Source of the DNA: Stegostoma tigrinum
Taxonomy: Eukaryota
Length of the DNA: 64,000 bases
Assembly: GCF_030684315.1 (NCBI RefSeq)
Contig: NC_081359.1
Span: forward strand, 35,040,470-35,104,469
Reading direction: 5' to 3'
Positions within the stretch are counted from its first letter, which is position 1, and every line of letters starts with the position of its first letter. Below, one piece after another: positions 5,262 through 42,052 of the stretch. A program made the translations under genes and the position numbers. The notes below the pieces were generated by a model. The model searched no databases and had not been told where the DNA came from. It saw only the letters and a list, made by a program, of their open reading frames with translations.

Positions 5262-5498
5262 GTATAACATAGTGTGTAACTGTAGGAGCACAACAGGCCA
5301 GGCAGCATCAGAGGAGCAGGAACATTGATGTTTTAGGTCAGGGCCCTTCTTAGGAATTGAGAAATCAATTTTCTAAAGAAGGGACCTGACCCAAAACATC
5401 AACTTTCCTGCCCCTCTGATGCTGCCTGGCCTGTTGTGTTCCTCCTGCTCCACACTGTGTTATCTCTGACTCCAGCATTGGCAGTTCTTACTATCTCT
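5262..5498. mobile_element. Palindromic mini-PLE (family A-like): inverted tail-less pLTR + pLTR + tail
   Basis: Two ~95 bp inverted arms meet at ...cccttcttaggaattgagaaatcaattttctaaagaaggg..., with a degenerate hammerhead on each strand. TSD GATTTCCAAATTAG 5248-5261 / GACTTCCAAATTAG 5499-5512. Confidence 0.9.
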
Positions 5499-5731
5499 GA
5501 CTTCCAAATTAGCCAGACTTCAGAGACATGGATCACAGGTGTTATGGATCAGTCCAAAGCCCCTCAAAATATGCTAAAAAGATAATGTAGGTATGACTTT
5601 TTTCTTTTTTTAAAGAAAAGCGCAAGGTGTTGCATTCTAGATGCAATTCAATTGATTAAACTACTCAAAGTAAAGCAAAACAGTTTATTTTTGCACTATA
5701 GTTAAATACAGACAAAATAAAAATGAAAGAA

Positions 5732-5964
5732 CAAAAACAAATTAGCTGGAAACATTCAGCAGGTCGGGCAGCATCTGTGAAAGAAAAAGCAAGAGTTAAA
5801 ATTTCGGGTCCAGTGACCTTTCTTCAGAACAGTTCTGAGGAAGGGTCACTGGACCCGAAACTTTAACTCTATTTGTGCTTTTACAGATGCTGCCCGACCT
5901 GCTGTATGTTTCCAGCTAATTTTTTTTCCCTGATTTACATCATCTGCAGTTCTTTCCATTTTTG
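5732..5964. mobile_element. Palindromic mini-PLE (family B)
   Basis: Inverted arms 5732-5830 and 5832-5930 centred on cagaac-a-gttctg, then a ~34 nt tail. TSD TAAAAATGAAAGAA 5718-5731 / TAGAAATGAAAGAA 5965-5978. Confidence 0.92.
5831..5868 (+). ncRNA. Minimal type I hammerhead ribozyme (PLE family B); mirror copy on the minus strand at ~5793-5830
   Basis: AGTT-CTGAGGA-A-GGGTC-ACTG-GACCC-GAAA-CT-TT-AACT: stem I AGTT/AACT and a perfect 5-bp stem II. Confidence 0.78.
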
Positions 5965-8789
5965 TAGAAATGAAAGAATTGTCTTAACAGTAACTCTATC
6001 AAAATGTTTAACAAAAATAAGAGGTATATTAACTACTACTAACTAACTTTTCCAATATTGTAACATCCCATAAACACACACTTGGCAAAGACAAATTAGT
6101 AAAATTGATTTGTTACACATGCAATTCTGCCAGCAGGTAGAGAACCCCAGATGTTAACCATAGCAGAGAGAGAAATAAAAGGTTTTACATCCAGTTTCAA
6201 GACTCCAGTAACTGCAGAAAGCTATTTACTTTATTGGCTTTGAGTAGGCCGCTCTGTACCTCTGTCTCAACCTTCCTTCATAAAAAAAGGACAAATTGCA
6301 CCGCTTAAAGCTGTAGAATTCTCACACAGGACTAGCAATAAATGGAATCAAATGGGAAGACAGTACTACATGCTTCCCAATTTTAATTCCCCTAGACCTC
6401 AACTCAATTGCAAGAGCAATATTTTGCCCAATTTCAACAGTTTCGCGACAAATGGGTTCAGCTGAAATGGATCTTCATTTTGTTTGAGAAAAAGGGGACA
6501 ATGAATGGTAAACTTCTCCTCAGTTAACCTTATATTATCCATGAATTGTAAAACCATCTCAAAATGCTACTTTCATACAAGATGCACAAATGTTCAGTGA
6601 TTTTTACTTGCTGGAATGATGTTTGTGATAACATGCATTTATAATAGATCTCTAATTTTGAATCTGTCTGCTCACCCAAATTCTTCTCTAACTGGAATTT
6701 GAGTTACATTTTAGTAACGCTGATTAAAGAATTAATTAGATCTTTGAGGTAATTGAAGTACGTTTTGTAAATATGCCTTGTGCTGAGAAGAATCCAAAGG
6801 GAAAATATATATATTGCTTGCTTGGTTATGAATAATTTTTAGGCATCACTGACTGCATAAAACACGTGATAGGGTTTTACTTGTGTTAAAGTGTAGCCTT
6901 TTAGTTTTAGCCTTTTCTAGGATGCCTTCAGGAAATTTAGTTGTCCTGAGAAGTGCAGTGCATCGGTCCACATCATTCAAGTTTTGCCAGCATTGGAGTG
7001 GCTTTATCAGTGATTGCTCTTAAAGATAATTCTTTAACTATGAAAGACAAAATGTTCTATTCACAACTCAATGGTCAGACAGCCAGCAGAGCCTTCCTGC
7101 TTTAACGAGTGACATAGGTTGTTTAAGCTGTAATGCAAATCCCTCAATCAATTCTTCCATTGACTACCAGCAACTTGCCCATGATATTTCAACTAAGCCA
7201 TTGAAAGATTAACCCCCATCTTTGGTTTCCCAATTCAAGTATGCACAGGCTCCAAGTCTGGGTCCGACAACCTTGGGCCAAATATTTACCCAGTGCACAC
7301 TGTAAAACCATACATACAAGTGATACTGTCCCATACTATTATTATGGAGAATGAGCAAGATAAAGTCATTAATGAAACATGTGCTTTGAGAGAACTTGGG
7401 TAAGTGAATATTGACTGGAGAAAACAACATTATAACTGGAATAGAATTGAGAGCTATTTTGGAATCTATGAAGTACTTGTTACTTCACATACAGATTGTC
7501 ATAAATAAATGAACAGGATGAACTTGGCCTCCTCATTAGCTTTAAGTTGTTTCCCATGTCATAGTTACATCAAATTTGATAAGGTGACTCATACTTTCTG
7601 TTTAAGAAAATGTATGGCAGCAAATACTTAATTTCTGCTGAATATAGGGTAAAGTTATGACACATTCCATTTTTAAAATCAATTTTGACAACATTTCACA
7701 CCTTGTCATTTTTACTTTTTGTATGAACATAAAACAAAGGAAGTTAGAAAGCCAATGAAAGGGTAGCAAACTGCTGTCTTCCTGAAAGAAAATGGTGCAG
7801 GTTCCTTTCCCAGGGTAGCACATTTAAAGTTTGCAAAACATTAAATCATTGTTAACTGTGTTGGTTAAAAAGAATGATACATTTTAATTTTTAAAAAAAA
7901 TAGCAGCAAAAATCTTGTTCCTGATCACTACTTTTCATTAATCAACACCGGGCACTTCCTGAAGGATATGCTTTCACAATCAGTTCGCAGTTTTAAATGT
8001 TTCTGCTCCAATTATAGATTAACCTCAAATTATTAGATAAGTTTGGGAAAAAGGACTCCTTTGTATCAATTGCAGTTAAACAGAAACTCTGGAAGGCCTT
8101 TCTGCAAGGTCAACTTTTCTGCCACTGCTTAGAGGGTGGATTTTGTTAGTTGCAGACTAAAATTAGCAGACAGGGTAATTAACTCAGAAAATGAGGTCAA
8201 AGCTAATCCTCCTAATGGACAGGAAGAGCTGCAACTTGCTAAAGCTGCAAATTAACTTGCTTTTACCTCAAATTGCTTAATTTCCAAAACTGTTAGTTAG
8301 CTAGAGTACAAACTTAATGAAGTTGAGCATATCATTTCAGGAAGCACATGGACTGGAATGATAAATTCTTCACCATCTGTTAGCCAATATAATCTTTCAA
8401 AAGTTATTCCTCCAAGATGTCATCATAGGGGTGGATTCTGCAATATAAGAGGAGGCAAGCCAGAATAGTGGCACAAGTCTCAAGAAAGGACACTGGAGCA
8501 ATTGCCCGTAATTTTCCAGGGTCAGCATAATTGAATGATTAGCATGAACTCCCAGCCCAACTTTACCCTTATGTCTGGTTTAAAACTTAAACATCGGGGT
8601 CATTTCTTTTAATCTCCAGTACATTTGTCAATGAGCATTGGTGTCTTAATTTGGCTTAGTGCTAACATTCAGACTACATAGCCTATAGGTCAAGACCTGC
8701 GGTTTACCTTTTGAGCCGAAGGACAAGCTATCTTTCTCCTTTTGAAAATGTTGGCAGAGATCTAAATCCAGAAGTTATGCTCCCAACCT

Positions 8790-8851
8790 TGTGTGTGTGT
8801 GTGTGTGTGTGTGTGTCTCTGTGTGTCTGTGTGTCTGTGTGTGTGTGTGTG
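8790..8851. repeat. (GT)n microsatellite, imperfect
   Basis: Direct reading. Confidence 0.97.
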
Positions 8852-9840
8852 CAAATGTGCCTGCATGCATGTGTGTGTGGAATGTGGGGCAGGGGTGGTG
8901 GTAGTTCATGAAAGGGTAGAGGAGTGTTGGAATAATGGACATGCAGGGGAGATATGTGTTTTAAAACAAATGCCTTTGCCCTTTAGATCTGGTCCCAAAA
9001 TATCTTTGGTTGAGGACAGATCAAATGCCCACTGAAATGTTAAAATTACATGAAAACATATAAACTGATTAAAGTTGTCAATGCTACATTCCAATTCCAG
9101 CATAGATCAAATTTGTGTTATGATCTAGCTAGAGACCAGTTTTTTTTTGTCAATAATATGAGAAATCCAGGTTAAGACCAGAAATTGCTGGAGAAACTTA
9201 AGTCGTGATAATAGACTGTCACTGAACACTTAATGGACACTGAATTAAAACACATGATCAAGATGATGTATCAAAATTATTTATTTCGTTGATCTGGCCT
9301 TGCAACCCTCCTTCAAAAGTTATTCCATTTAGGATTGTCTCAATTATTGTTTGTGTTTTCATTAATTTGGCTTCTTTCCTCAGTTTATGCTTTCTGAGAC
9401 TTTCCAGTACTCGTTCACAAGCATGACCCCAGCTGTTCATCAACAACAAGTTTCACCAAGCTAAAACAGTCCTTGAATTTTTCCCTGAGCTACAATTTTG
9501 TTCATTGGCATCCAGAAATAATAGTGTTCTTTTCAACCCACGTCTGTGATATCTGTACTTAAGCATTAAGGCTGACAGCCTTCCTCCAAGTCCCTTATGG
9601 TGTCTCTTGACACAGAGCCAGTGACCTCCCATTTGCTCAGCTCTACAAGAGTTCTTCTGAACTTCTTCTGATTCCAACACTTAAGCGTCTTAAAATTCTT
9701 AGGACATACTCACAAGTTCTGGGCCCACAGAGCAACCCAACTGCTCTTCTCTCCACACTGAGTCTACCGCGTATAATCTGTACAGTTCAAATATCTTTCC
9801 AGAAGCACAGCTAACCGTAACACTCTGAACGTGAAATTTG

Positions 9841-11552
9841 GAGCTGGAGGAACACAGCAGGCCAGGCAGCATGAAAAGACGCAGGGAAGTTGATGTTTCA
9901 GATCAGGGCCATTCTTTAGAACTTTGGGGCTGGGGAAGGTTGGTGGGATGGTGATAACTGAGTGCAGGTGGGCAGTGATGGGGGTTGGTCAGTGAGGTGG
10001 GAGCAGTGGATAGGTGGGAGAGAAGATGGACAGGTTGTATCAGTCAAAGAGGTGGGGATGAGAGGGAAGGTTGGTCATGGGATGAGGCCAGGGGTAGGGA
10101 GATTTTCAAACTGATAAAGTCCATAATGAGATTATTGGGTTGTAGACTCCCAAGACTGTATATAAGGTGTTGTTCCTCCAGTTTCTGGGTGGTGTCATTG
10201 TGACACTGGAGGAGGCCTAGGAGGAACATGTTGCCCAGGGAGTGGGAGGTGTAGTTGAATTGGTTCGCGGCCAGAAGGTGTTGCCATTTGTCGCAAATAG
10301 AGTGCAGGCGCTCTACAAAACTGACTCTGAGCCTCTGCTTGGTCTCACCAATGTAGCGGGCACCACATCGGGAGCAGTGGATGCAATAGACCATTTTTAT
10401 GGATGTGCAGGTGAACATCTGTCTGATGTGGAAGGTTTGTTTGCTGCTTTGAATGGGGGTGAGGGGGGAGGTGTAGGAGCAGGTGTAGCAGTTCTTACAG
10501 TTGCAAGAAAAGGCGCTGGGGGAGGTGGGACTAGAAGGGAATGCAGAGTGGACGAGGGATTTGTGGAGAAAGCGGTCCCTATGAACGTCACTTAGGGGTG
10601 GGGATGGAAATATATCCTTGGTTGTGGGGTCAGATTGCAGAAATAAGGTTAGTGAGGTGATTGGTGAGGGCAAGGGGGATTCTGTCTTTCTTTTTTTTGG
10701 GGAGAGGAGATGTGAGGGCAGTGGCACAGGAAACACAGGAGATGCAGTTGAGAGCATTTTCGACACCGAAGGGAGGAAATTGCGGTCCTTGAAATAGGAG
10801 GACATCTGGGATGTTCGGGAGTGGAGCGCCCTATTTTGGGAGCAGACACAGTGGAGGTGGAGGATTTGGGAGTAGGAGATAGCATTCTTGCAGGAAGGTA
10901 GGTGAGAGGAGGTATAGCCTAGGTAGTTGTGGGAGTCGGTTGGCTTGTAAAAGATGTCGGTTTTGAGGTGGTCAACAGAGATGACACAGACAGGTCCAGG
11001 AAGGAGAGAGAGGTGTCGGAGATGGTACAGGTGAACTTGACTTTGGGGTGAAAGGTGTTAGTATAGCTGATGAACTGCTCAAGCTCCTCGTGGGAGCATG
11101 TGACAGCATCAATACAATCATCGATGTAGTGGAGGAAGAGGTGGGGGAAAGTGCCAGTGGAACTGCAGAACAGGGACTGTATCATGTATCTGACAAAGAG
11201 GTAGGCATAGATTGTGCCATGCAGGTTCCCACGGCCAACCCTTAGTCTGTAGGAAGTGGGAGGAGTTAAAGGAGAAGTTGTTAAGGTTATAGGATGAGGG
11301 TGTCAGTGGAGGGCGACTGGTTGGATCTGCAGGAGATGAAGAAGCAGAGGGCTTTTATGCCATTCTCATGGAGAATACAAATGTACAGTGATTGGACATC
11401 CATAGTGAAGATGAGGTATTGGGGAAAAGGGAATTGGAAGTCTTGGAGGAGGTGGTGGGCATGGGTGATGTCCACCATGTAAATGGGGAGCTCTTAGACT
11501 AGAGGGAGAAAATAGAGTCAAGGTAAGCAAGCATAAGTTCAGTGAGGCAGGA
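9841..11552 (-). mobile_element. Neptune-type PLE, long tail-less inverted arm (RT, Cys-linker, GIY-YIG, 3' UTR, pLTR)
   Basis: ORFs 11287-11478 (IFTMDVQSLY), 10919-11185 (YIDDCI) and 10044-10805 (CNCKNCYTC; VYCIHCSRCGARYIGET); degenerate hammerhead near 9890-9920. Confidence 0.92.
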
Positions 11553-16770: not shown

Positions 16771-16869
16771 TGCTTCAACCACTTCTAATAAAATACCAAT
16801 AGAGAGCAATACTAATTCAATCAACCACATTTTTAAGAGTTTCAGTTACAACAATTAAAAGTCTAGTAG

Positions 16870-18097: not shown

Positions 18098-18145
18098 CAG
18101 TAGCTCTAAAGTGAGCTCTAAGCTAACTAGCTCTATTTCTCCCCT

Positions 18146-19737
18146 TTGGTCCAGGAACTCCCCACCTACGTCAGTGACACCACCCACGCCCTCCACCTCC
18201 TCCAGGACTTCCAATTCCCTGGCCCCCAACACCTCATTTTCACCATGGACGTCCAGTCCCTATACACCTGCATTCCGCATGCAGATGGCCTCAAGGCCCT
18301 CCGCTTCTTCCTGTACCGCAGGCCCGACCAGTCCCCCTCCACCGACACCCTCATCCGCCTAGCTGAACTCCTCCTCACCCTCAACAACTTCTCTTTTGAT
18401 TCCTCCCACTTCCTACAGACTAAGGGGGTGGCCATGGGCACCCGCATGGGCCCCAGCTATGCCTGCCTCTTTGTAGGTTACGTGGAACAGTCCCTCTTCC
18501 GCTCCTACACAGGCCCCAAACCCCACCTCTTCCTCCGGTACATTGATGACTGTATCGGCGCCGCCTCTTGCTCCCCAGAGGAGCTCGAACAGTTCATCCA
18601 CTTCACCAACACCTTCCACCCCAACCTTCAGTTCACCTGGGCCATCTCCAGCACATCCCTCACCTTTCTGGACCTCTCAGTCTCCATCTCAGGCAACCAG
18701 CTTGTAACTGATGTCCATTTCAAGCCCACCGACTCCCACAGCTACCTAGAATACACCTCCTCCCACCCACCCTCCTGCAAAAATTCCATCCCCTATTCCC
18801 AATTCCTCGGCCTCCGCCGCATCTGCTCCCACGATAAGACATTCCACTCCCGCACATCCCAGATGTCCAAGTTCTTTAAGGACCTCAACTTTCCCCCCAC
18901 AGTGATCGAGAACGCCCTTGACCGCGTCTCCTGTATTTCCCGCAACACATCCCTCACACCCCGACCCCCCCCCCCCACAACCGCCCAGAGAGGATCCCCC
19001 TCATTCTCACACACCACCCTACCAACCTCCGGATACAACGCATCATCCTCCGACACTTCCGCCATTTACAATCCGACCCCACCACCCAAGACATTTTTCC
19101 ATCCCCACCCCTGTCTGCTTTCCGGAGAGACCACTCTCTCCGTGACTCCCTTGTTCGCTCCACACTGCCCTCCAACCCCACCACACCCGGCACCTTCCCC
19201 TACAACCGCAGGAAATGCTACACTTGCCCCCACACCTCCTCCCTCACCCCTATCCCAGGCCCCAAGATGACATTCCACATTAAGCAGAGGTTCACCTGCA
19301 CATCTGCCAATGTGGTATACTGCATCCACTGTACCCGGTGTGGCTTCCTCTACATTGGGGAAACCAAGCGGAGGCTTGGAGACCGCTTTGCAGAATACCT
19401 CCGCTGAGTTCACAACAAACAACTGCAACTCCCAGCCGCAAACCATTTCCATTCCCCCTCCCATTCTCTAGATGACATGTCCATCATGGGCCTCCTGCAG
19501 TGCCACAATGATGCCACCCGAAGGTTGCAGGAACAGCAACTCATATTCCGCCTGGGAACCCTGCAGCCATATGGTATCAATGTGGACTTCACCAGTTTCA
19601 AAATCTCCCCTTCCCCTACTGCATCCCTAAACCAGCCCAGTTCGTCCCCTCCCCCCACTGCACCACACAACCAGCCCAGCTCTTCCCCCCCACCCACTGC
19701 ATCCCAAAACCAGTCCAACCTGTCTCTGCCTCCCTAA
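18146..19737 (+). pseudogene. PLE reverse transcriptase / GIY-YIG endonuclease polyprotein; 5'-truncated, with one frameshift and one stop
   Basis: RT motifs MDVQSLYT, QTKGVAMGTRMGPSYA and YIDD. Frameshift in the poly-C run 18965-18976, linker FP(Y)NRRKCYTC, VVYCIHCTRCGFLYIGET from 19312, premature TGA 19405-19407, true stop TAA 19735-19737. Confidence 0.93.
19618..19734 (+). repeat. 3 x 39-nt in-frame tandem repeat at the PLE ORF end
   Basis: Encodes TASLNQPSSSPPP / TAPHNQPSSSPPP / TASQNQSNLSLPP. Confidence 0.9.
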
Positions 19738-19959
19738 CCGGTTCTTCCTCTGACCCATCCCTTCCTACCACCCCAAGCCGCACCTCCATCTACCTACTAA
19801 CCTCATCCCACCTCCTTGACCTGTCTGTCTTCCCTGGACTGGCCTATCCCCTCCCTACCTCCCCACCTATACTCTCTCCACCTATCTTCTTTTCTCTCCA
19901 TCTTCCGTCCGCCTCCCCCCCCCTCCCTATTTATTCCAGTTCCCTCTCCCCATCCCCCT

Positions 19960-19991
19960 CTCTGATGAAGGGTCTAGGCCCGAAACGTCAG
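19960..19991 (+). ncRNA. Minimal type I hammerhead ribozyme (PLE family A), identical to 291-322
   Basis: CTGATGA 19962-19968, stem II GGGTCTAGGCCC, GAAA 19982-19985, CGTC 19986-19989. Confidence 0.8.
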
Positions 19992-21044
19992 CTTTTGTGC
20001 TCCTGAGATGCTGCTTGGCCTGCTGTGTTCATCCAGCCTCACATTTTATTATCTTGGAATTCTCCAGCATCTGCAGTTCCCATTATCTCTAGCTCTATTA
20101 CTGTATCTGCACTTCTTATTCTCAGAGCCAAACTTGGAGTACTAATTGAATCAGCAATATGTAGGTATAATTCTTGAATCACATAAGCATCATTGGAAAA
20201 ATACTTAAGCAGGAATCCATTTCACAATTGGTCTCCTGCTCAGTAGAAGCAAGCCAAGCTTCAAAGCTGAGGATTATCTACACAGGACACTGAAGCAGCA
20301 GAGGCACTGTGTTTTTACTGCTGCAACTGGGTAGCCATGGGCCATGGGTAATTATTTTGTGTGTGTGTGAGTAATTTCAGGCATTTCTCCATGAAATTGA
20401 ATCCCAACATGAACTGGCTTGTGTTGAGATTATTGCTCATGGCAAGGTAGGTAAATCTAAGACATTGAGATATTAGAGGGAGCTCTTAATGTTGACCATG
20501 AGCGCTGAAAATAATTCTCTTCCTTCAGCCTGGTATTCCTGATTTGCACAAAACAAACAGAAGTGATGCTTTACTTATAACTCTCCTGCAAATGGAAAGC
20601 ATTGGGACTGTGTGAGCAGCAGAGCCAAAACCTGGAGGTTATAATGTCAGGATCGAGCTATAGGATCCCACTCCCATCCCTTCAAATTTAAAACATACAC
20701 ATCAGGCCATTGATAACGCTCCCAGATAAGGTTAACGGAATCATCAACATTTCCAAGTCAAGAGTTGAAGACACTATTGATGCCGCTATTTGAATATAAC
20801 TGGAAGAAAGGGGGAGGCCTGAGTTGATGACTCTCCAGTACATGGCAGGAACACTTGACTCCCAACACTAATTGCTAAAGACTTGTTCTTCAAACATTCC
20901 TTGTTCATCAAGGAGAGCAGAAATGCACCTGCACAACTGGACACCCCTCCTCTCTGCACACATCCCACCCCCCGCCCCGGTCTCATTCATCAGCCCTTCC
21001 CTTTCATTGTAATTCCTTGTTTCAAAACGCTAGTAAAAAGGTAA

Positions 21045-21542: not shown

Positions 21543-21544
<2 letters not shown>

Positions 21545-25586: not shown

Positions 25587-26095
25587 CTTCATCAGAAAAG
25601 GGAGAGGGGAAGAACATTCTGAAATAAATAGGGAGAGAGGGGGAGGAGGATCGAAGATGGATAGGGGAGAAGATAGGTGGAGCGGAGACAGACAAGTTAA
25701 AGAGGCGGGGATGGAGCCAGTAGAGGTGAATGTCGGTGGGGAGGTAGGGAGAGGATAGGTCAGCCCGGGGAGGATGGACAGGTCAAGGGAGCGGGATGAG
25801 GATAGTAGGTTGGAAATAGGGGTGCAACTTGAGGTGGGAGGAGGGGATAGGTGAGAGGAAGAACAGGTTAGGGAGGCGGGAACGAGCTGGGCTGGCTTTG
25901 GGAGGCAGTAGGGGAAGGGGAGATTCACCCGAAGGTTGCAGAAACAGCAACTCAATTCCACTTGGGAATCCTGCAGCCCAATGGTATCAATGTGGATTTC
26001 ACAAGTTGTAGGTTCAGGTGCTGCCCCTCTAATTTACGGGTGTGTTATTATGTCACTGGAGGAGGCCCAAGATAGACATGTTAACCAGGGAGTGG
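25587..26095. mobile_element. Scrambled PLE fragments: minus 25587-25925 (family A 3' UTR), plus ~25926-26005, minus ~26006-26095 (endonuclease C-terminus)
   Basis: The minus piece starts at cttcatcag (reverse complement of CTGATGAAG). The plus piece cacccgaaggttgcagaaacagcaactc matches ~19516-19595. Confidence 0.8.
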
Positions 26096-27932
26096 ATGAC
26101 ATTCCCCAACCCCGCACTGCCGGTTTACACCTCCTTCCCAAAATCCACAAACCCGACTGTCTGAGCCGACCCATTGTCTCTGCCTGCTCCTGCCCAATAA
26201 ACTTACCTCTACTTACCATGACTCTGTTTTATTACCCCTGGTCCAGGACTCCCCACCGATATCTGGGACACCAATCACGCCCTCTATCTCCTTCAAGACT
26301 TTCAATTTTCTTCACTGTGGCCATGCGGATGGTCCAAAAGCCCTCTATTTCTTCCCTTCCCATAGGCCCAACCAGTTCCCTTCTACCGACACCCTTATAC
26401 GCTCAACCAAACTCGTCCTTACCCTTAACAACTTCTCCTACAACTCCTCCCACTTCCTAAAGACTAAGGAGTTGGCCATGGGCACCCGTATGGGCCCAGG
26501 CTATGCCTGCCTCTTCATAGGATATGTGGAACAGCCCCTCTTCCGCTGTTACACTGGCAGTATCCCCTACCTCTTCCTCGATTACTTTGATAACAGTACC
26601 GGCATTGTCTCGCACGCCCACAAGGAGCTTGAACACTACTTGAACTTTACTAACATGTTTCACCTCAAATTCAGCTGGACTCATCTCTGATACGTCCCTC
26701 TCCTTTCTGGACCTCGCTGTCTCCATCTCTGGTGAGCGCCTCGAAACTGACATCTATTCAAGTCCTCTGACTCACACAGCTACCTGGACTACACCTCCTC
26801 TCACCCACCCTCCTACAAGAATGTTATCTTATACTCCCAATTCCTCCGCCTCCACTACATCTGCTCCCAAGATGGGGCATTCCACTCCCGAACATCCCAG
26901 GTGTCCTTCTATTTCAAGGACTGTAACTTGCCCTTCTCTAGTGATTGAAAACGCCCTCAACCCCATCTCTTGTGTTTCCCACACCTTTGCCCTCACATCC
27001 CCTCTCTCCAATGAAAAAAGGGCAGAATCCACTTTGTCCTTACTTATCACCCCACCAACCTCTGCATCTAATGTATTGTTCTCTGCCATTTCCACCACCT
27101 GCAATCCAACCCCACAACCAACGGTATATGCCCCTTCCCACTCCTATCTGCCTTTCATAGGTAGCGCTCTCTCTGCAACCCCGTCATCTGCTCCACACTC
27201 CCCACTAACCCCAATGCACCTGGCACCATTCCCTGCAAATGCAAGAAGTGCTACACCTGCCCCTACATCTCGCCCCTCGCCTCCATCCAACAAACCTTCC
27301 CCATTAGACAAGGGTTCACCTGCACATCCATGAACTTGGCCAATACATCCATTGCTCCTAATGTTTCCTCCATTACATCAGTGAGACTGAACGGAGGCTC
27401 GGAGATTTCTTTGCAGAGCGCCTGCATTCTTTTCACAACAAACAACACCTTACAGTCGGGAACCATTTCTACTCCCCCTCCCACTCCCTGTGCAACATGT
27501 CCATCCTGGGCCTCACATTGACACCACCTGGAAACTGGAGGAGCAGTGCCTCAAATTCCGCATTGGGAGCCTACAGCCCAATGGCCTAAACGTGGATTTT
27601 ACCAGTTTGAAAATCTCCCCAAGCCCCTGCCTCATTCCATGACCAACCCTCCCTCTCATTCCTGCCTCGTTGACCTGACACAACCTGGTCTTCTTCTCCC
27701 CCACCTATCTGCCTCATCCTTCCCACTGTCCAAACCCCACCCCAGCCTACTTGCACTCACCTATCACCATCCCACCTATCTTTCTGAGCCCCACCCCTCC
27801 TCTTTCTGTTTATTTCTGAGCTCCTTTCTCCTCCACATTTCCTACTCCTTTGATGCTGCCTGGCCTGCTGTGTTTCTCCAGCTCCACACAATGTTATCTC
27901 TGACACAAGTACCTGCAGTTCTTGCTGTCTCT
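26096..27932 (+). mobile_element. Neptune-type PLE: RT to tail, with the hammerhead deleted
   Basis: LHLLPKIHKPD..RPIVSACSCP, AMGTRMGPGYACLF and CKCKKCYTC; pLTR and tail end ...cttgctgtctct. Deletion at 27840/27841. Confidence 0.9.
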
Positions 27933-29890: not shown

Positions 29891-31031
29891 AATAAAATTT
29901 TAAAAAGCGTACTAAACTGCAACATTGATTTTGACAGCGATTTAATGAAAACTGTGTATTCCTTAATATCACATGCTAAGCCATGTCAATGCCATGCTAT
30001 TTCCAGTTTTGCTGAAAAAGGAGACTAGCTATTGAAGGTTTGCATCTTACACTAATCAGGAAATTTGCAAGAACACCAAATTTCCAATGTAGAAAACTTT
30101 ATATTGCTTGAGAAAAGATGGTGATTGCTTGGCAAACCAATACTAATTATTTGAAGTGTTGCCATAGAAAATGCTGAAAGGATCTATTTTCCCTATGCTT
30201 TTGTTTAATTCAAGGCATGTACAAAAATTGCAATGTTACATTCTATTGCAGAGGGCAGTTTCCTGCATATGAACATTTGTAGCAGATAGTAAGGATAAAT
30301 GAACACTTTAAACGCTCAACAGATAATCTCAAATTTGCTCTTAGTGTAATTCTGAAAACAATCTGGATTATTCAGTAAATCATAGAGTCATAGAGTTATA
30401 CAGCATGGAAACAGAACCCTTTGGTCTAACTCACCCACGCTGATCAGATATCCGAAACTAATCTAGTTACATTTGCCAGCATTTGGCCCATTTCCCTCCA
30501 AACCCTTTCTAATCATGTACTCATACAGATGCTTTTTAAATGTTATAATTGTATCCATCTCCATCACCTCCTCTGGCAGCTTGTTTTATACACTCACTGC
30601 CTCCTGCATGAAAAATTTGCCCCTCAGGTCTCTTTTAAACCTTTACCCTCTCACCTGAAACCTACACCATCCAGTTTTGGATGACCATACCCTCGGAGAA
30701 AGGACCCATTCTAAGAAAGGGTCACTGGATCTGAAACAGACGCAACCAGGCCTGCTGAGCATTTCCAGCAACTTCTGTTTTTGTTCCTGATTTATGAAGT
30801 CCATAGTCCTTTTGCTTTTTATTTTAGTATTTGAGCCACATCTCTTCTAGGCATGCCCACCTTGAAGAGGTTCTGCTCCTCTTTTCGACAGGATTTCTGT
30901 TCAAATCTTTCTTCTTGTCCACCAACATTAATTTCACAGTCGGTCCTTGGGTTTGACTAAGTGTTTGCTAAAACTCATTTCCACAGCCATATTACATTCC
31001 TCAGTGACTGCCTCCAGCTCACACACCCCTG

Positions 31032-31381
31032 CTGTGGTGATGGCCTAGTAGTATTATCACTAGGCTGTTAATCCAGACACCCAGGTAATGTTCTGGAGAC
31101 CTGGGTTCAAATCCCACCATGACAGATAGTGGAATTTGAATTCAAGAAATATCTGGAATTAAGGATCTAACGATGACTGTGAGTCGATTGTTGGAAAAAC
31201 ACATCTGGTTCACTAATGTCCTTCAGGGAAGGAAGCTGCCATCCTTACCTGGTCTGGCCTATATGTGACTCCAGACACACAGCAATGTGGTTGAACCTTA
31301 ACTGCCCTCGAGGCAATTAGGGATGGGCAATGAAAGCTGCCTGGTCAGCAACACCTTCATTCCATCAATAATTTTTTAAAA
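31032..31381 (+). mobile_element. Full-length tRNA-derived SINE nested in the PLE
   Basis: A box TGGCCTAGTAG, B box GGTTCAAATCC, LINE-like tail ggcaattagggatgggcaat...; homologous to 53213-53575. Confidence 0.9.
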
Positions 31382-32869
31382 AGTGGTTTCCAATTGAAGT
31401 TTTATCCCTTTTGTTTTGAATCCTCCCAGAATTACAGATATCTCCGTAATGTTCAAAATTCCACAGACAGCTGCTCTCACCACATCCTGCGATTCACACT
31501 CAGTGTCATGTGGCAAAACATGCACACTCTCAACCTCTCAGTCCAATCGCAATACAGCACACTGGATCAGGGTTGCATCACTTTGCAGTTCCACTTCATC
31601 CTCCGGCTCATTCATCCTGCTAACAAGAAAGTTTTTCTTTACCTTTCAGCCATCAAGGCCCACAAGATGTAACAATTCTAAGCTACCCATGGCCCTCTAG
31701 AACCTTCCTTTCCTCCCTCTGACTCCATTCCCTCCCCCAGCCCCACCTCCTGTCAGGAATTCACCAACCCTCCAAACCTCTTTCTCTCCGATGCTGAATA
31801 TTCTATACTCAGCAAAGGCCTCAGCTTTATCCCTGTGCGACACACCTTAACGAATTATGGGCATGACATGACATTGAACTCTTCCCCCACCGTCTTTGCC
31901 TCCATGCCCATTTCTTTGAACAGGAGTCCTTTCCCACAGATGCCATTCGCCCAGTTCCAACACTGTCCCTCCAGCTGGGCCCCTCCCTTTGGCCTTTTAC
32001 TTGCACTCAATCTGTTCTTTGAGAACTGTCAACATGATATTGTTCATCTCAATTTCTCTGCAACTCCAATCTATCTCCTTCTGAACTGACTGCACTCCAT
32101 TCACTTAGATCTAACTCTGGCTTTGTTATTAAGCCTGCTGATAAAGGTAGTGTTGTGGTAGACTGGCATACTGACCTCGACATTGCTGAGGCTCAGCACC
32201 AGTTCTCAGATGCTTCCTCTTATCTTGCCCTGGGCCATGACCCCACCATGAAACATTAGGTCATTGTATCAACTACAGTAACAGGCCTCATTTCATTTGG
32301 TGACCTCTCCCTCACTGCCTCCAAACTGATAGCCACTTAGCCCTGCACAGCTTGCTTCTACCTTCTTCCAACAATCTACAAACAGGACTGCCCGTGTAGA
32401 CCCATTGTTTCAGCCTGCTTCTACTCCACCAAACTTATCTCTTCCTACCTGGACTTCTCTTTTAACTCCTCTCATTTACTTCAGGTGAAAGGAGTGGCCA
32501 TGGGTTCCCGCATGGGACCCAGTTATGCCTGTCTCTTCAAGGAGTACATGGATCATCCCTTGGTCCAGTCCTATTCTGGCTCCCATCTACCAAATCTTTC
32601 TCTGATATATCATTGGTGCTGTTTCCCTCTCTTGCCTGAAATTGGAAAAATTCATCCATTCTGCCTCCAATTTCCACCATGTCCTCACTTTCACCTGATC
32701 TATCTCTGACTCCTCCCTTTCCTTCCTCGACATTTCTGTTTCTATTGCTGCGGATAGACCAGCCATTAATATCCACTCTAAACTCACTGACTCCCACAGC
32801 TAGCTGGACTATATATCCTTGCACCCTCCTTCCTGTAAAGGCTCCATCCCATTCTTTCAGTTCCTCGGT

Positions 32870-32909
32870 GAGTTCTGAGGAAGGGTCACCGGACCCAAAA
32901 TGTTAACTC
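32870..32909 (+). ncRNA. Hammerhead ribozyme remnant (family B), with GAAA mutated to AAAA
   Basis: GAGTT-CTGAGGA-A-GGGTC-ACCG-GACCC-AAAA-TG-TT-AACTC, with 5-bp stems I and II. Confidence 0.7.
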
Positions 32910-33629
32910 TGATTTTTGTTTTCACAAATGCTGCCAGACCTGTTGACACTTTCCAGCAACTTCTGTTTTTGTCCCTGGCAAAGTGGCCTTGGCTATCTGC
33001 TTTATGTATGCACCTCAGGATTTTATAAACCTCTATAAGGTTAACCCTCAGTCTCAGATGCTCCAGTTGAAAAAAGCCCCAGTCTACTCAATCTCTCCCT
33101 ATAACTCAAAGCCTCCAACTGCAGCAAAATCCTTGTTCTGAGTTTTTTTCAAGTTCAACAACATCTTTTCTCTAGCACAAGGCCAGAATTGAATGCTCTA
33201 TTCTAAAAGTGTTATGTAATCACAGAATTACACATAACATTTGACATTGTGTTCTGAGGTTTGCATGCATTGGTTTGCCTACTGCAAAGAACTGACAGGA
33301 AATGTTTCATATAATCCAACAGTCATTAGAATGCTTGGCTCGCAAACCTAGTGTTACACTAATGTTAAACCTCACATACTGCATTACTGTTTTGGTAGTT
33401 AGAATGTCTTTTTGGCATAATGGAAGCATCCAGTTGGTGGAGAATGCTCTCATTTTTCTATTGCCATGTTGCAGTATTAAATGGTTGGATGCTTTTGGTA
33501 TTCAAATGCTTGAGATCGTTGATGTTTGTGGGACAATTTGAGGCATAGCGTGGGGACATGTCAAATGTAAAATGTGGTTATGGAGAAAGGGTCTCTGTCC
33601 ATTAGTATTTCAGGCAGAGATTTGGAAAG

Positions 33630-35154: not shown

Positions 35155-35570
35155 TCAAATAAGAACAGGAGAAGACAGTTCAGCACCTTTGGCCTGCTCT
35201 GCGATTCAGTAAGACCGTCCCTTAGATATACTCAAGGACTCTGCCCGTTATGGTCTATGAAAAAGGGTTCCAAAAATCCTCAGATAAAATAAAATCTTCC
35301 TCATCTCAGTCTTAAATTAGCACCCCTTTATTCTGAGAATATGCCTTCTGGTCCTAGACTCTGCCATGAGGGGAAACATCCTCTCAACATTTACTCTGTC
35401 AGGCCCCTTAAGAATCCTATATATTTCAGTGAGATCACCTCACATTCTTCCAAATTTTAAAGAGTACAGACCCAACATTTTCAACCTTTGTTCATGAGGC
35501 AATTTGTCCACAGTGGCTATCATTCCAGTGGACTTTCTCTGTATTGCCTCCACTGAAAAAAGTCTTTCCT
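35155..35570 (-). mobile_element. CR1 LINE 3' end fragment
   Basis: ORF 35440-35631 (HEQRLKMLGLYSLKFGRM) and an aagaacaggag terminal segment. Confidence 0.75.
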
Positions 35571-35939
35571 TAAATTCCAACTCAAAACTTGTGAAAAAAA
35601 TCAAATTTAAATAAAAGTTAGTTATTGGCATCTTAGATTTTAAAATCCAAACATTTTAAAGGGCCATAGTGCTAAGTTTAGCTGACATGAAAGTGAGTAT
35701 GCTGTGGAATTATTTGTCTCATTGAAGTGTGTCATGCTACTGAAGAGGTTGGGAAGTACAGAGGACTGGCACCATTCCTTTATAAGCTAGTTGAAGAGGT
35801 TGTTTAGTAGTCTGTGGTGGAGAGTGGGCCACAGAAAAGCCTCCGTAGGGAGACTGATTTATTTCATAGTAAGGTGCAGTTTATTATGTCTCAGTATCTG
35901 TGACCAGGTTAGATGAACTCTTAAGCACACACTGCAGAG

Positions 35940-38142
35940 ATTAAAAAACATAGTTGGAGTCCTATACAGGCCTCCAAACAGTGGTCAGGAGCTGGGGCAC
36001 AAGATACTTCACAAGACAGAAAATGGCAGGAGTTTCAAGGAGTCATTCAGGAGACACAGCAAAAATTTATCCTTAAGAAAATAAAGCATGGTACAAGGAG
36101 GATGATGCAATCATGGCTGACTAAGGAATCAGGAATAGCATAAAAGGAAGAGAGAAAGTATATAATCTGGTGAAGGTCAGTGGGAAACCTAAGGATTAGG
36201 AAACCTACAAAGACCAACAGAGGGCAACAAGAAAGGAAATAAGGAGGGAGAAGATTAAATATGAGGGCAAGCTAACCAATCCAAAGATGTGCAAGTTAGA
36301 TAGGCCAGCCATGTCACACCAGTAATATAAGGGAGGACTGTAAAAGTTTCTTCAGATATATAAAGGACAAAAGAGAGGCAAAAGTGGATATTGGTCACTG
36401 GAAAATGACATTGGAGAGATCATAGTGGGGAACAAGGAAATGGCTGAGCACCTGAATAATTAATTTGTGTCAGTCTTCACAGTGGAAGACACGAGCAATA
36501 ACCCGAAACCTCAAATGAGTCGGGGCCAGAGCTGAGTATGGTGGCCATCACCAAGGAGAAGGTGCTAGAAAAACTGAATGGCCTGTAGGTGGATAAATCA
36601 CCAGGACCACATGGACTACTCCCCAGTGCTCTTAAGGAGATAGCCGAAGAGGTATTGGAGGCGTTAGTGGTGATCTTTCAGGAATCACTAGAGTCAGGGA
36701 GGGTCACAGAGGACAGGAAAATCGCTACCTGTTTAAAACGGGAGTAAGGCAAAAGACTGAAAATTACAGGCCAATTAGCCTAACCTCAGTTTGGGGTAAG
36801 ATTTTAGAGTCCAGTGCAAAAGATGAGATGTCTGAACACTTGGAAATGCATAGAAAAATAGGGCAAAATCAGCCTGGCTTTATCAAGGGGAGGCCATGCC
36901 TGACAAATCTGTTAGAATTCTTCCAGGAAGTAACGCACAGTGTAGACCAAGGAGAGTCAATGGATGTTATCTACCTGGACTTCAAGAAGGCCTTTGACAA
37001 GTTGCCACACAGGAGGCCGCTGAGTAAGATAAGGGCCCATGGTGTTACAGGCAAAGTACTGCCTGACAGAAAGCAGACAGTGGGGATAAAAGGGTCCATT
37101 TATGAATGGCAGCAGGTGACATGTGGTGTTCCACGAGGATGAGTGTTAGGACCATAATTTTCCATTTTATATGTTAATGACCTAGATGAAGGAACTGATG
37201 GCATTCTAGCTAAGTTTGCAGACGATACAAAGATACGTGGAGGGACAGATAGTATTGAAGAGGTGGGGATACTGCAGAAGGATTTGGACAGATTAGGAGA
37301 ATGGGCAAAGAAGTGGCAGATGGAGTACAATGTGGGAATGTGTAAGGTTCTGCACTTTTGTAAGAAGAATAGAAGCATTCACTATTTTCTAAATGGGGAG
37401 GAAATTCAGAAATCCGAAGTGCAGAGACTGAGACTTCTAGTCCAGGATTCTCTCAAGGTAAACTTATAGGTTGAGTCAGTAATTAAGAAGGCAAATACAA
37501 CTTTGGCATTTATTTTGAGAGGACTTGAATATAAAAGCAGGAATGCACTTTTGAGGCTCTATAAGGCTCTGGTCAGGCGACATTTGAAGTATTGTATGCT
37601 ATTTTAGGCCCCATATTTCAGGAAAGATGCACTGTCTTTAGAGTGGGTTCAGAAGAGGTTCACGGGAATGGCCCCAGGAATGAAAATCTCAACATATGAG
37701 GAATGTTTGAGGACTCTGGGTCTATCCTTGGTGGAGTTTAGAAAGATGAGGAAGAATTTAATCGAAACTGAAATAATACTGAATGATTTGGACAAAATGG
37801 ATATTGAGAAGATGTTTCCATTGGTTGGAGAAACTAGGGCCCGAGGGCATAGACTTAGAGTAAAGAGAAGACCTATGAAAATGGAGATAAGGAGAAACCT
37901 CTTCAGCCAGAGCGTTGTGAATCTATGGAATTCACTGCCACAGAAGGTTGTGGAGGCCAAGTTGTTGAGTGTATTTAAGACTGAGATAGATAGGTTCTTG
38001 ATTGTCAAGGGGATCAAAGGTTATGTGGAGAAAGCAGGAGAATGGAGTTTAGAAATGTATCAGTCATGATCAAATGACGGAGAAGTGTTGATGGGCTGAA
38101 TGGGCTAATTTCTGCTCTTATGCCTAATGCTGTTATGGTCTT
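35940..38142 (+). mobile_element. CR1 LINE ORF2 (endonuclease remnant, RT, C-terminus) plus 3' UTR; decayed
   Basis: GVLYRPPN; QPGFIKGRPCLTNLLEFF; VIYLDFKKAFDK; KFADDTK; LWNSLP; 3' UTR ending ttatggtct. Confidence 0.95.
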
Positions 38143-38558
38143 TATTCAACTGTTACCAACAAGAGTAGAGAAGTCACATGTATTTCCATCAGAAGACTGT
38201 ACAAAACTCCAAATTATTTTCCAATTTGATATCAGACTGGGTAGAGCTCAGATTCATTTAAACATTAACACTTTCTAACCTTTTATACGACAACCCTATG
38301 TTTTCTCTTCTACACCATCAGTAGCCAAGTGTTCATTGTTTCAGATTGAGTCTTTTGAACTCTGCCCTGAAATCTTTCACTCTTTCATCTTTAAGATGAT
38401 CTTTAAAATTTTACCTTTTTGGTTTTAGTAACCTGTCCTAATATTTCCTTCTGTGGATTAGAATTATTTATGGTCTAACTACATATAATGTTTATGTTTT
38501 GTCACCACAACCAATTTATGTACGAAAAACTCTTTACCCAGACACTGTTGTTAGTGAA

Positions 38559-38679
38559 GGATAGTAGGAACTGCAGAAGCTGGAGAATCTGAGATAGCAA
38601 GGTGTAGAGCTGGATGAACACAGCTGGCCAAGCAGCTCATAGGAGCAGGAAAGCTGACGTTTCGGGCCTAGACCCTTTC
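38559..38679 (-). mobile_element. Single-arm mini-PLE (family A): hammerhead stem II to tail only
   Basis: Reverse complement reads AAGGGTCTAGGCCCGAAACGTCAGC...tail. TSD GTTAGTGAA at 38550-38558 and 38682-38690 (11 bp allowing one CpG change). Confidence 0.9.
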
Positions 38680-38850
38680 TCGTTAGTGAAATGGACAAAG
38701 ATGAACATTTCGGTTTTCAATTCAATTCAATAGTATTAACACAGTATTCTCTATTAAAACATGATGGTTGCAGTTTCTAATTTCCATAATATTCACTCTC
38801 TATCTTACTCTCTTTTTGAGAAAAGATAGTATCCACAATGATCCATATTT

Positions 38851-38980
38851 GACACAAAAACAAAGTTGCTGGAAAAGCTCAGCAGGCCTGGCAGCATCTG
38901 TGGTGGAGAAAACAGGCTTAACATTTTGGGTCTGGTGACGCTTCCTCAGAAGGGTCACCAGACTCAATACGTTAACTCTC
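38851..38980. mobile_element. Asymmetric palindromic mini-PLE (family B)
   Basis: Minus arm 38851-38949 ends at cttcctcag (reverse complement of CTGAGGAAG) and is fused to a plus arm aagggtcaccagactcaatacgttaactct. No TSD found. Confidence 0.82.
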
Positions 38981-39519
38981 TTAACGTATCTTCTACCTTG
39001 ATTCTTGTTGTGAGCTTTGGCTGATGAGGTAACTTCTAGCAGAGTGTTTTTATACCCCACTTCCGCAGACTTTCTTGATTATTTCATGGCATTTGGTCAA
39101 TGGGGTGATTGATGAGCAGTGTTCAAAGCATTGGATGGGGTTGTGCCAACGGCATTCACTGCTGCATTGCTGGGGTTGGGGGTGTAAAGTGCACATTCTC
39201 AGGCACTGGCTGGAAGTCAAGGTGCCAGAAAGTCTGATCGATACTTCTCTAATATATAACCTTCAAGCTGGTTGTAACTGGTTTCTCCTGAACTTTTTTT
39301 AACTTTGTGACCTCTTTGAGCTTTTCTTTTTTTACATTGTTCTCTGTAATTGAAAGCAGTTAGATGTTGTTTATCTTAGATTGGCTATTTTTCTCTTCAG
39401 CCCAATTTCTCCGGCTATGGGCCAATTTCGAATGTCCACTTAGGCTGTGGTCATTTGACCACAAAATAAGATGAGGTCCTCCTCATACGAGTATCTCACC
39501 TTGTTTCGCATCTGTTACC

Positions 39520-40480
39520 TTTGCTTTAAAATCCTTGTACTCTACAATCCACTCAATTACCATATAAAATTTCTTCCCAAACTGCTATCACTTCCCTCAC
39601 TATCTGAAACATTTGACCAACGTTTTTAGATATATTCCTTCATTCATTCATCATTAAGAGGCTATTCTCAAGTTCATTCCTTCCTGATGAATGATAGCCA
39701 AAGATACATCTACCATCACTTCCCTTCCCACACAGTTACATCTGGAGTTCTGTATGAATCTACCTATTGACATCCTCTGATTTCATATCTCAATGTTGCA
39801 ACTTAACGACATCATCTGAAAACACTTTAATTCTACAAATATATTTCTACAAATCTACCTCACCAGCCCCTGTTTTGAATGCTTACTTGTCCTGAGATTT
39901 CGTTTGAATGTCACATAATCATTTTAATTGGAAGACATTTCAATTTACCAAGACTGCCACATTGCCTCCGAAGCTGCTGCAAACTCTGTTCACCAGCCTC
40001 CAACTCCATTCCTCTTCCTAATCATCATCTGAGGTTTACCCAGATCATTTACACTCCCGTTTGACCCTGAAATGAAATGATTTGACCATATATTCTCTCT
40101 ATCATTTATCATCTAAATTCATCTCCTTAACATTGTCTGGCTCCATCCCTGCCTCTGTTAACAGCAATTCCTTCATTATTCCAGTCTACCCCTGGCTTAT
40201 TTTCATAAACCCAAGATTATCAACAGCTCTGATGCCTGTATCCTTACTCAGCCACCATGTTTACTGATCCCTCTAAGTTGCAAAGGGATACAGCAATACA
40301 GCAATTAGGATTGAGCTGGCCCAGAAGTGAACTGGGTGCTACTGTAACCTGAAGGTCTCACACAGCCGGAAAAGCAGAAGACTTTGACAGTTACCTGGGT
40401 GCCCATTGGCCTAAATTGCTGTCTAATTCTGAATCGATTCAATTTTTAAAATTCTCATCCTTGTTTACAAAATACTCTTG
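39520..40480 (+). mobile_element. Old L2-like LINE remnant
   Basis: Pyrimidine-rich degenerate RT-like blocks (acagttacatctggagttc, gacatcatctgaaaacac, ctacctcacc, tttaaaattctcatccttgtttacaaa). Confidence 0.45.
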
Positions 40481-40594
40481 GAATGCTAATCAAGTTTTTA
40501 TTTTGAACTGTTTAACTACATTAAATTTCGGTTTATTGTTGCTGTTTTGCTTTTTAGTCATAATTAAATAAATGAAAAATTTAACAAAAGTACT

Positions 40595-42052
40595 GATTTG
40601 GGATTGTCAACAAGGCTTTGCTTTGTGGGAAATCGCGTGTCACTTACTCAACTGAGTTTTTACGAAATGGCAAAGAAGATAGATGAAGGTGCAGTGATAA
40701 ATGTTGTCGATGTAGACATTCGATGCGGCTCTGCATGGTAAACTGATTAGTAAGGTTAGATTATGTAGGATCCAGGAGGAACTTGCGAATTGGATGCAAG
40801 ATTTGCTTCAAGTTAGAAGACAGTGAGTTACTTTTCAAACTGGAGGCCTGTGACCAGCAGTGTGCCACAATGGTCGATGCTGGGTCCACTGCTTTTCGTT
40901 ACTTATATAAGTGATTTGGATGTGAATATCAGAGATATGGTTATTAGTTTTGCAGATGACACTGAAATAAGCTGTGTAGTGGACAGCAAAGAAGATTATC
41001 TTGGAGTTCAATGGGACCTTGATCTGATGGGCCAATGGGTTGAAGAGCATCAGGTGGAGTTAAATTTAGATAAATGTGAAGTGTTGCATTTTGGTAAGGC
41101 AAGCCAGGGCAGGGCTTTGACAGTTAATGGTACGAACCTGGGAGTGTTACTGAATAAACAGACCTAGGGGTGCAGATGCATAGTTCCTTGAAACTGGAGT
41201 TGCAGGTAAACAGGAAGGTGAAGAAGGTGAGAATACAAGGTGTAGAGCTGGATGAACACAGCAGGCCCAGTAGCATCAGAGGAGCAGGAAAGCTGAAGTT
41301 TCGGGTGTCGACCCTTCAGAAAGGTCCAGGCCCAAAAAGTCAGCTTTCTTGCTCCTCTGATGCTGCTTGGCCTGCTGTGTCCATCCAGCTCTATACCTTG
41401 TTATCTCAGATTCTCCAGCATTGGCAGTTCCTACTACCTCAAGGTGAAGAAGGTGTTTTGCATGTTTGCCTTCATTGGCCAGTGCATTGAGTGTAGGAGT
41501 TAGGATGACATGTCACAGCTGTAGAGGATATTGGTGAAGCCTCTTTTAGAATATTGTATACAGTTCTGGTTGCCCTTCTATAGGAAAGATGTTGTTAAAC
41601 TTGAGAGGGTGCTGAAGAGATTTAAAAGGATGCAGCCAATACTGGCGAGCGGTGGGATTTGAGTTACAGGGAGAGGCTGAATAGACTGGGGCTTTTCTTG
41701 AAGCCTGAGGATTGGCCTTACAGCAGTTTATAAAATCATGAAAGGCATGGATAGGGTGGATACCCAAGCTCTTTTTTATAGGGTGGTGGAGTCCAAAACT
41801 AGAGGGCATAGGTTTATGGTGGGAAGGGAAAGATTTTAAAAAGACCTAAGAGTTAATGTTTCCACACATGTGGTTGTGAATATATGGAATTAGCTGCCTA
41901 AGGAAGGAGTGAAGGCAGGTAAAATTACAACATTTAAAAGGCATCAGCATTGGTTGATGAAGAGGAAGGGCCTAGAGGGAAATGGGACTAGGTCAGATTG
42001 GGATGTCTGGTCCAAAGGATTTGTTTCCAAACTGTATAACTCTATGACTCTA
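40595..42052 (+). mobile_element. CR1 LINE RT to 3' end, interrupted by a mini-PLE
   Basis: WRPVTSSVPQWSMLGPLLF, SFADDT and KCEVLHFG; terminal ctctatgactcta microrepeat. Confidence 0.92.
41230..41440. mobile_element. Palindromic mini-PLE (family A)
   Basis: Perfect 15-bp TSD AAGGTGAAGAAGGTG at 41215-41229 and 41441-41455. Inverted arms meet at cccttc-ag-aaagg (~41317); the 34-nt tail (41407-41440) is on the right arm only. Confidence 0.94.

Follow-up and report, generated by a model that had tools for sequence, protein, structure and literature searches.

A single-base 5′-breakpoint peak upstream of the hammerhead motif points to probable run-off reverse transcription from a putative capped RNA start in Penelope-like elements of Stegostoma tigrinum

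In the Penelope-like elements (PLEs) of Stegostoma tigrinum, the 5′ breakpoints of genomic copies pile up just upstream of a hammerhead motif, and we consider that this wall probably marks the capped 5′ end of the sense RNA copied by the reverse transcriptase (RT), with the short copies (minis) being run-off complementary DNAs (cDNAs). The analysis concerns a 64,000-nt stretch (NCBI RefSeq assembly GCF_030684315.1, contig NC_081359.1, positions 35,040,470 to 35,104,469 of the forward strand; hereafter the window) within a 3.2-Gb assembly, in which 16 matches to the PLE pseudo-long terminal repeat (pLTR) were found with nhmmer, falling into two sequence families named A and B. Central questions about the PLE cycle concern the identity and the start of the copied RNA, the role of the hammerhead and the way in which the pLTR is rebuilt. 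Positions are counted from the C of the CTGANGA box (0), negative numbers lying upstream.

Breakpoints around the hammerhead motif

An earlier reading of the window from its letters alone (the original prediction) had claimed that PLE breakpoints cluster at the 5′ edge of the hammerhead, and this was borne out both locally and across the genome. At the seven sites named there, ten arms all break between −9 and +6: 5373+ (−3), 5354− (−9), 5835+ (−5), 5827− (−3), 30711+ (−2 to −4), 32875+ (−4, joined at 32870 to RT-coding sequence), 38683− (+6), 38949− (−2), 41314+ (+4) and 41322− (+5). Six further window copies, none of them named in that reading, extend far upstream (293, 9919, 12164, 19962, 27807 and 46614).

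For an unselected sample, 13 blocks of 100 kb (1.3 Mb) were picked by round coordinates; 399 of 414 block matches were placed on 71 endonuclease (EN)-bearing natural copies, and the 15 unplaceable matches were left out. The 5′ breakpoints of 124 mapped copies fell at −10 to −1 and those of only 5 at −50 to −11, while 118 lay further upstream, 142 at 0 to +60 and 10 beyond +60. Expressed as break hazard per nt, the wall reached 0.0735, compared with 0.003–0.019 in the downstream shoulder and 0.0010–0.0016 upstream. It was present in solo copies (67/233) and paired copies (57/166) alike, and in each group: 20/112 in the young subfamily of family A (young A), 53/173 in other A and 51/114 in B. 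Pyrimidine-rich DNA was found upstream in all 108 copies mapped past −100 and in 5 of the 124 wall copies; since wall copies lack the pyrimidine-rich untranslated region (UTR), the wall is not an edge of alignment or conservation. The two arms of head-to-head pairs shared their fate, with 13 long-long, 5 mixed and 65 short-short combinations among 83 pairs, where independence would give 2.9, 25.2 and 54.9.

Exact-match counts for young A cover the whole genome and resolve the wall to one base. Purine (A+G) mismatches just 5′ of each possible start numbered 1,330 for −7, 3,186 for −5, 9,162 for −4 and 4,115 for −2, against a substitution background in long copies of 407–478 purines per site. 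The genome-wide young-family breakpoint peak is thus at −4, with a smaller one at the predicted hammerhead cut. By the same count, starts at +28, the predicted cut, numbered 4,226, compared with 1,879 at +25 and 1,416 at +31. The statement that breaks do not lie at the cleavage site holds for the main peak; the +28 peak is minor and real, and cleavage seems to supply a minority of ends.

The hammerhead boxes (CUGANGA, GAAA, stem II, NUH and stem I) are visible in both families, and the stems differ in sequence but stay complementary, stem I being 2 bp long in family A and 4 bp long in family B, as would be expected of a minimal type I hammerhead motif. A search against Rfam gave no hammerhead match, only 7 weak matches to microRNA-type hairpins and two other RNA families, all under the gathering score. 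It had also been stated that all copies retain the GAAA-NN-UH region, which proved true only loosely: GAAA has decayed to AAAA in several window copies, and the first hammerhead of the 30707 copy has lost about 22–24 nt right after GAA together with the cut site. Perfect palindromes centred on AGCT just past the cut numbered 791, whereas the equally self-complementary controls ACGT and CTAG just upstream gave 50 and 71, and mutation survival was similar across the three palindrome arms (92, 82 and 80 of 200). Much of the +28 excess lies in these AGCT-centred palindromes, and an AGCT-specific join preference may play a part; on the simplest account of the genomic ends, a minority of templates was likely cleaved by the hammerhead to give +28 ends. 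One old long copy in the window (27807–27850, +) lacks roughly −4 to +27, roughly a 5′ hammerhead cleavage fragment, although it is a single case with short microhomology.

A predicted capped start and competing origins of the wall

The base preceding the wall carries a second signal. In young A across the whole genome, position −5 is C in 89,839 copies (those continuing upstream), G in 7,848, A in 1,314 and T in 2,568 (by difference), so that G makes up 86% of the purines before a −4 start, compared with a genome share of G among A+G of 0.41. For other starts the shares come from 100 matches listed: G was found at −3 in 77/100 before −2 starts, stayed at background before −5 and −7 starts (48/100 at −6 and 41/100 at −8), and showed no excess before +28 starts (30/100 at +27). 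Family B likewise had G at −5 in 61/100 (p 6e-5). When 30 loci were read singly, 26 had the G. Two of these were long copies carrying a substitution; of the remaining 24 junction Gs, 5 could be traced to the partner arm and 1 to the target duplication, and 18 had no source in either. Additional untemplated bases often stood ahead of the G. In full-length copies of L1 and SVA, an extra untemplated G at the 5′ junction is an accepted sign of cap copying (PMC4859970), and the extra G at −5 likely marks a capped RNA start at −4.

An identical short purine run ending in G was observed before the −4 end at L199, L219, window position 9921 and block C28, the junctions being otherwise unrelated, which suggests a preferred order of untemplated addition.

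Promoter-like motifs were tallied, with the usual consensus definitions of TATA, initiator and TCT, in those 101 of the 122 long copies in which the box could be located; the other 21 were left out. A TATA-like hexamer occupied −35 to −31 in 50/52 young A and 7/11 B copies, and −35/−34 in 23/38 other A copies, while an initiator-like YYANWYY with its A at −4 was found in 21/38 other A and 8/11 B copies. Families A and B share no sequence upstream, yet have the TATA-like motif and the wall at the same positions. From the two motifs, RNA polymerase II would be expected to start at −4 under the control of an upstream promoter. Together with the sharp wall and the untemplated G, they make it likely that the template RNA begins just upstream of the hammerhead, as the original prediction had proposed. 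Of four sets of sequencing-run contigs, two, presumed to be RNA, have loose ends at 19961; contigs cannot show starts, only the same stub edge there. At locus L308 (G000:C4:123066180-123066930) the promoter segment from −54 to −15 is present three times ahead of an R that leads into the open reading frame (ORF).

The following series of steps would account for these data. TATA and initiator in the C-rich, U3-like part of the pLTR would start RNA polymerase II at −4, so that the RNA opens with R, comprising the hammerhead and tail. The enzyme would make nicks in both strands of the target, and synthesis would be primed within the tail, around +92 and +127; priming in the 5′-terminal R would then run off after 95–135 nt, the cap being copied as one extra C (G on the sense strand), often with a few more untemplated bases. 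One such cDNA would give a solo mini, and two joined end to end, often trimmed, would give the head-to-head palindromes and the 0 to +60 shoulder. Occasionally the run-off end would jump to an unrelated RNA position, for example at window 32870. Priming in the downstream R would meet no wall and yield long copies with roughly exponential truncation, and a minority of templates, cleaved by the hammerhead, would run off at +28. Of all this, the breakpoint distribution, the G excess, the motifs with their spacing and the kinds of junction are direct observations, from which the start site, the cap, the priming sites and cleavage in vivo are inferred. The wall together with 3′ ends at about +92 and +127 agrees with the earlier proposal of tail-primed run-off minis, here of 95–135 nt. 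This genomic footprint, a wall plus an extra G, matches what a strong-stop product, that is, a short cDNA running off the RNA 5′ end, would be expected to leave; the feature behaves as a strong-stop run-off, and a role in LTR-type transfer is a candidate only.

Several observations weigh against a capped start at −4. Young A has a TCT-type motif there in 52/52 copies, a circular tally given that the group was defined by those bases; the family-A TATA-like motif reads AATAAA on the opposite strand; and consensus matches do not equal promoter function. An older A subfamily with ATTT before the box showed no G excess (35/100), which self-complementary AATT joins may mask, and a first pooled G test over all families found none either (24 G in 101, 28 expected) before being replaced by the exact young-family counts. 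The excess at −3, and part of that at −5, can stem from microhomology with the partner arm, only 30 loci having been inspected for it. Among copies leading into the ORF, counted over 73 sampled loci, just 2 of the 24 family-A copies that reach the wall stop there, compared with 20 of 81 young-subfamily terminal copies. The others continue seamlessly over distances that range from 21 nt to beyond 1,800 nt, and their breakpoints vary per copy except for two in one tandem locus. A linear RNA from −4 cannot alone template these copies, so that a jump, a circle or read-through is needed.

Of the competing explanations, one keeps the same start and run-off and changes only the source RNA. It takes the templates to be short transcripts of solo 3′ pLTRs, present in tens of thousands, that keep the promoter, is compatible with a capped start, and seems to us possible but doubtful. 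About 90,000 young copies match an exact 24-mer through −5 and the TATA-like box is kept in most long copies, both as this explanation would have it; however, the anole enzyme requires sequence downstream of its priming sites (PMC11167929), which terminal copies here lack, R divergence shows no difference between minis and long copies (p 0.20), and junctions vary per copy, which argues that minis are not spreading as fixed units.

The original prediction had itself offered an RT stall, at the entry to the C-rich UTR or at the folded ribozyme, as an alternative; in the form considered here, the RNA reaches further upstream and the enzyme halts where the C-rich UTR begins or once the folded ribozyme has been copied. 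The wall does coincide with the start of the C-rich tract and with the 5′ strand of helix I, and a probabilistic stall would simply explain why 123 of the 247 copies reaching −1 go past the wall. Nevertheless, the C-rich tract holds no tail of breaks (hazard 0.0010/nt at −50 to −11), the two arms of a pair do not behave independently, the extra G at one specific position would be left unexplained by a stall, family B has the wall at the same place despite a different upstream sequence, and the predicted fold of monomer R is no better than that of shuffled sequences (z 0.26 to 0.51 and −0.33). We therefore disfavour a stall and regard it as improbable.

Equally little credence is given to an RNA end at −4 made by processing, either by a nuclease or by splicing, with the G arising from C-preferring untemplated addition instead of cap copying. 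Such addition would fit the untemplated bases that often precede the G, family B has CAG at −5 to −3, and an intron of Drosophila Penelope is described as ending at helix I (PMC4209133). On the other hand, the predicted ribozyme-cut ends at +28, which are expected to be uncapped, lack the G excess, no common upstream exon was found among the junctions examined, young A has no AG at the wall, and two families show the canonical TATA-to-initiator spacing. Finally, loss of palindrome centres after insertion, or alignments stopping where conservation stops, is largely refuted and very improbable: 166 of 399 copies do lie in head-to-head pairs and the UTR is of low complexity, but the same wall occurs in solo copies with target duplications, the composition control rules out a hidden UTR, and the young family is 95–100% identical across the boundary.

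Element architecture, long copies and features of the window

The full-length family-A unit is about 3.6 kb long, with an ATG at +166, i.e. outside the hammerhead, and 6 of 18 long copies have open ORFs of 1,072–1,089 amino acids (aa), in which RT is followed by a C-terminal GIY-YIG domain. Pfam returned RVT_1 (E 1.5e-4) and GIY-YIG (E 1e-3) in this order, both under the curated cut-offs. This single-ORF arrangement is that of an EN-containing (EN+) PLE as far as the translated sequence indicates. The linker carries a C-x4-C-x2-C motif, a criterion for the Neptune clade that is shared with Nematis (PMC8557442), so that Neptune is a candidate clade for these elements. Partial tandems create pLTRs, inverted 5′-truncated copies lie adjacent to others (83 head-to-head pairs were counted), and a tail of 30–40 nt lies on one side only, as in EN+ PLEs. 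Its two 3′-end classes (about +92 and +127) are usually represented once each in a family-A palindrome.

At L193/L194 and L251/L252 (G000:C28, about 38.482-38.490 Mb), a single insertion holds a head-to-head pair of full-length arms, which end at +127 and +94. Its 1,072-aa ORFs are open and its pLTRs are identical across the 472 nt compared; it is probably very recent. An in-frame repeat of variable length, in a Thr/Ala/Asp/Pro-rich linker within the N-terminal third of the ORF, was seen in L166, L203 and others and is strongly expanded in L203. PLEs inserted into PLEs were found at L200, L210, L212 and L278, some within the family-B R region.

The original prediction had the run-off cDNA either integrating or jumping to another RNA position. 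Rare non-homologous jumps were found. Because inverted arms in the references distorted an automated tally of same-strand jumps, only cases checked by hand are given: the end near −4 is joined to the ORF, to U3 or to another R at window 32870 and 9919, at L195, L199 and L219 (3 of 30 loci found via the ORF start), and at L283 and L284/285, several of these joins carrying either a G or a short stretch of untemplated bases that ends in G. Family-B copies leading into the ORF stop at the wall (−4 to −6) in 7 cases, pass it in 6, are ambiguous in 1, start at 0 in 1 and inside R in 8, and have no R in 7.

A homologous jump left no detectable scar. An R-to-R transfer that keeps the cap base should leave a G at −5 in long copies, while a scar-removing transfer would leave none. 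No cap-G scar was found in long copies, where purine substitutions at −5, −6 and −7 numbered 478, 407 and 468, of which G made up 45, 45 and 63 per 100, with 3 insertions. LTR-style homologous strong-stop transfer is thus not supported as a routine path to long copies. In 13 full-length copies the 5′ and 3′ pLTRs differ by 0.0138 in U3 within elements and 0.0239 between elements, and by 0.0136 and 0.0153 in R, with 16 shared minority variants, which fits a jump, a circle and read-through alike. As the main route to seamless long copies, a hammerhead-made circle (PMC4209133) can be held only tentatively, no more and no less so than read-through or another process, and a scar-free R-to-R transfer is only slightly less favoured.

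Minis are solo or head-to-head, and head-to-tail in one case (L284/285) among 30 loci. We also considered non-LTR retrozymes, which are defined by head-to-tail hammerhead tandems (10.64898/2026.07.22.740005), an arrangement that these minis do not have.

The window features are collected in Table 1. For the 30707 copy, the order of pLTR, tail, 5′ UTR or leader and ATG given by the original prediction was confirmed, although the copy is split by an unrelated repeat at 31036–31382 and has an internal deletion near 32453. This interspersed repeat of about 345 nt recurs at 53223–53539. At 25587–25595 (−) the 3′ side of a long copy stops about 9 nt into the box and has no tail. Decayed RT fragments resembling long interspersed nuclear elements lie at 36022–38077, 53675–55261 and 57829–58019.

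Table 1 PLE copies and predicted elements in the window (window coordinates)
Feature	Position	Strand	Remarks
Head-to-head mini pair, family A	5264..5500	.	Arms from −9 and −3; 3′ ends ~+90 and +126; 11-bp target duplication 5251/5502
Head-to-head mini pair, family B	5731..5932	.	Arms from −3 and −5; junction ~5830
Long family-A copy	9839..11517	−	42-nt deletion (~−45 to −4) removes TATA-like box; wall junction absent from the original prediction
Young family-A reference copy, 5′-truncated	18131..20092	+	RT, GIY-YIG region, C-rich U3-like UTR, R; 11-bp target duplication
TATA-like TATTTA box (predicted promoter)	19927..19934	+	~30 nt ahead of predicted start; position constant among long copies
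Position −4: predicted transcription start (TCT-type motif) and genome-wide single-base 5′-breakpoint peak	19958..19958	+	
Minimal hammerhead motif	19962..19990	+	CTGATGA, stem II, GAAA; predicted cut 19989/19990 = +28; motif description PMC4209133
Tail between 3′-end classes (~+92, ~+127), putative RT priming sites	20050..20092	+	Parallel in PMC11167929
Family-B copy starting at wall	30707..32977	+	R, leader, ATG 30853, ORF; join at 32870 to second R from −4
Solo family-A mini	38560..38677	−	From +6; 9-bp target duplication
Family-B mini	38854..38983	−	From −2; short inverted arm ~38951-38983
Head-to-head mini pair, family A	41229..41443	.	Arms from +5 and +4; 15-bp target duplication 41215/41441

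Comparison with known systems

In LTR retroelements, minus-strand strong-stop DNA arises in a U3-R layout by priming near the RNA 5′ end, which yields a short run-off cDNA. The PLEs described here differ in that the primer would be nicked target DNA and the run-off would integrate, an obligatory homologous transfer being a candidate only. As a speculative extension, vertebrate PLEs might be built like LTR elements, with a TATA-bearing U3 and a capped R; cDNA from the 5′ R would then be a true strong-stop that integrates as a mini or moves scar-free to the 3′ R, a second transfer would rebuild the promoter-bearing pLTR, and the +28 class would preserve traces of minimal hammerhead cleavage in vivo. 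If true, this two-transfer reading would answer how the pLTR regenerates.

Many of the components are already published, namely the architecture, the minimal hammerheads, internal priming, a start within the pLTR, and a putative TATA and initiator in one rotifer pLTR (PMC8557442, PMC4209133, PMC11167929, PMC2377424, PMC3846280). In the open literature searched, we found no PLE report of a cap footprint or cap Gs, a wall at a predicted start, a cut-site class, strong-stop cDNA or breakpoint histograms. The roughly 100,000 young copies here serve as a fossil map of 5′ ends, which yields single-base predictions, −4 and +28, and suggests that most templates were uncut and a minority cut. The run-off view would account for the dominance of short hammerhead stubs in such genomes.

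The closest parallel is the Poseidon element PAc of Anolis carolinensis (Frangieh et al. 2024), in which two adjacent internal RT start sites bound the tail (PMC11167929), and the two 3′-end classes found here parallel these sites, which were shown in vitro. In PAc, likewise, the enzyme cuts and extends both strands and uses mainly unprocessed RNA as its substrate, and the hammerhead lies upstream of the priming sites; RNA starts, cap signatures and genomic 5′ breakpoints are not mapped in the main-text portions of that work, which found no reads at the cut site (PMC11167929). The extra G in L1 and SVA marks full-length, 3′-primed copies (PMC4859970), whereas here it marks 95–135-nt minis that would be internally primed.

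For metazoan PLEs, Cervera and de la Pena (2014) described minimal hammerheads with the same pLTR motif, mostly in dispersed single copies (PMC4209133). A circular template was proposed there; in contrast, the majority of short copies here begin at the predicted cap, 32 nt upstream of the cut, and only a minority at the cut itself. Cleavage and circularisation are a candidate for producing the seamless partial tandems (PMC4209133).

Transcription of Drosophila virilis Penelope (Schostak et al. 2008) likewise starts inside the pLTR and needs the partial tandem, and the portions of that study covered here name no obvious mechanism that regenerates the pLTR (PMC2377424). Its promoter is internal, TATA-less and associated with an intron (PMC2377424), whereas the TATA predicted here lies upstream of the start, as in an LTR U3. 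Penelope of Adineta vaga (Arkhipova et al. 2013) also has an inverted pLTR, a one-sided tail and target duplications, with putative TATA and initiator in one pLTR (PMC3846280). Its palindromes were ascribed to self-priming on an antisense template (PMC3846280). In S. tigrinum, by contrast, the G at −5 suggests that the template was a capped sense RNA, and the fossil map as a whole favours such an RNA, transcribed from an upstream TATA promoter, over antisense self-priming as the origin of the palindromes.

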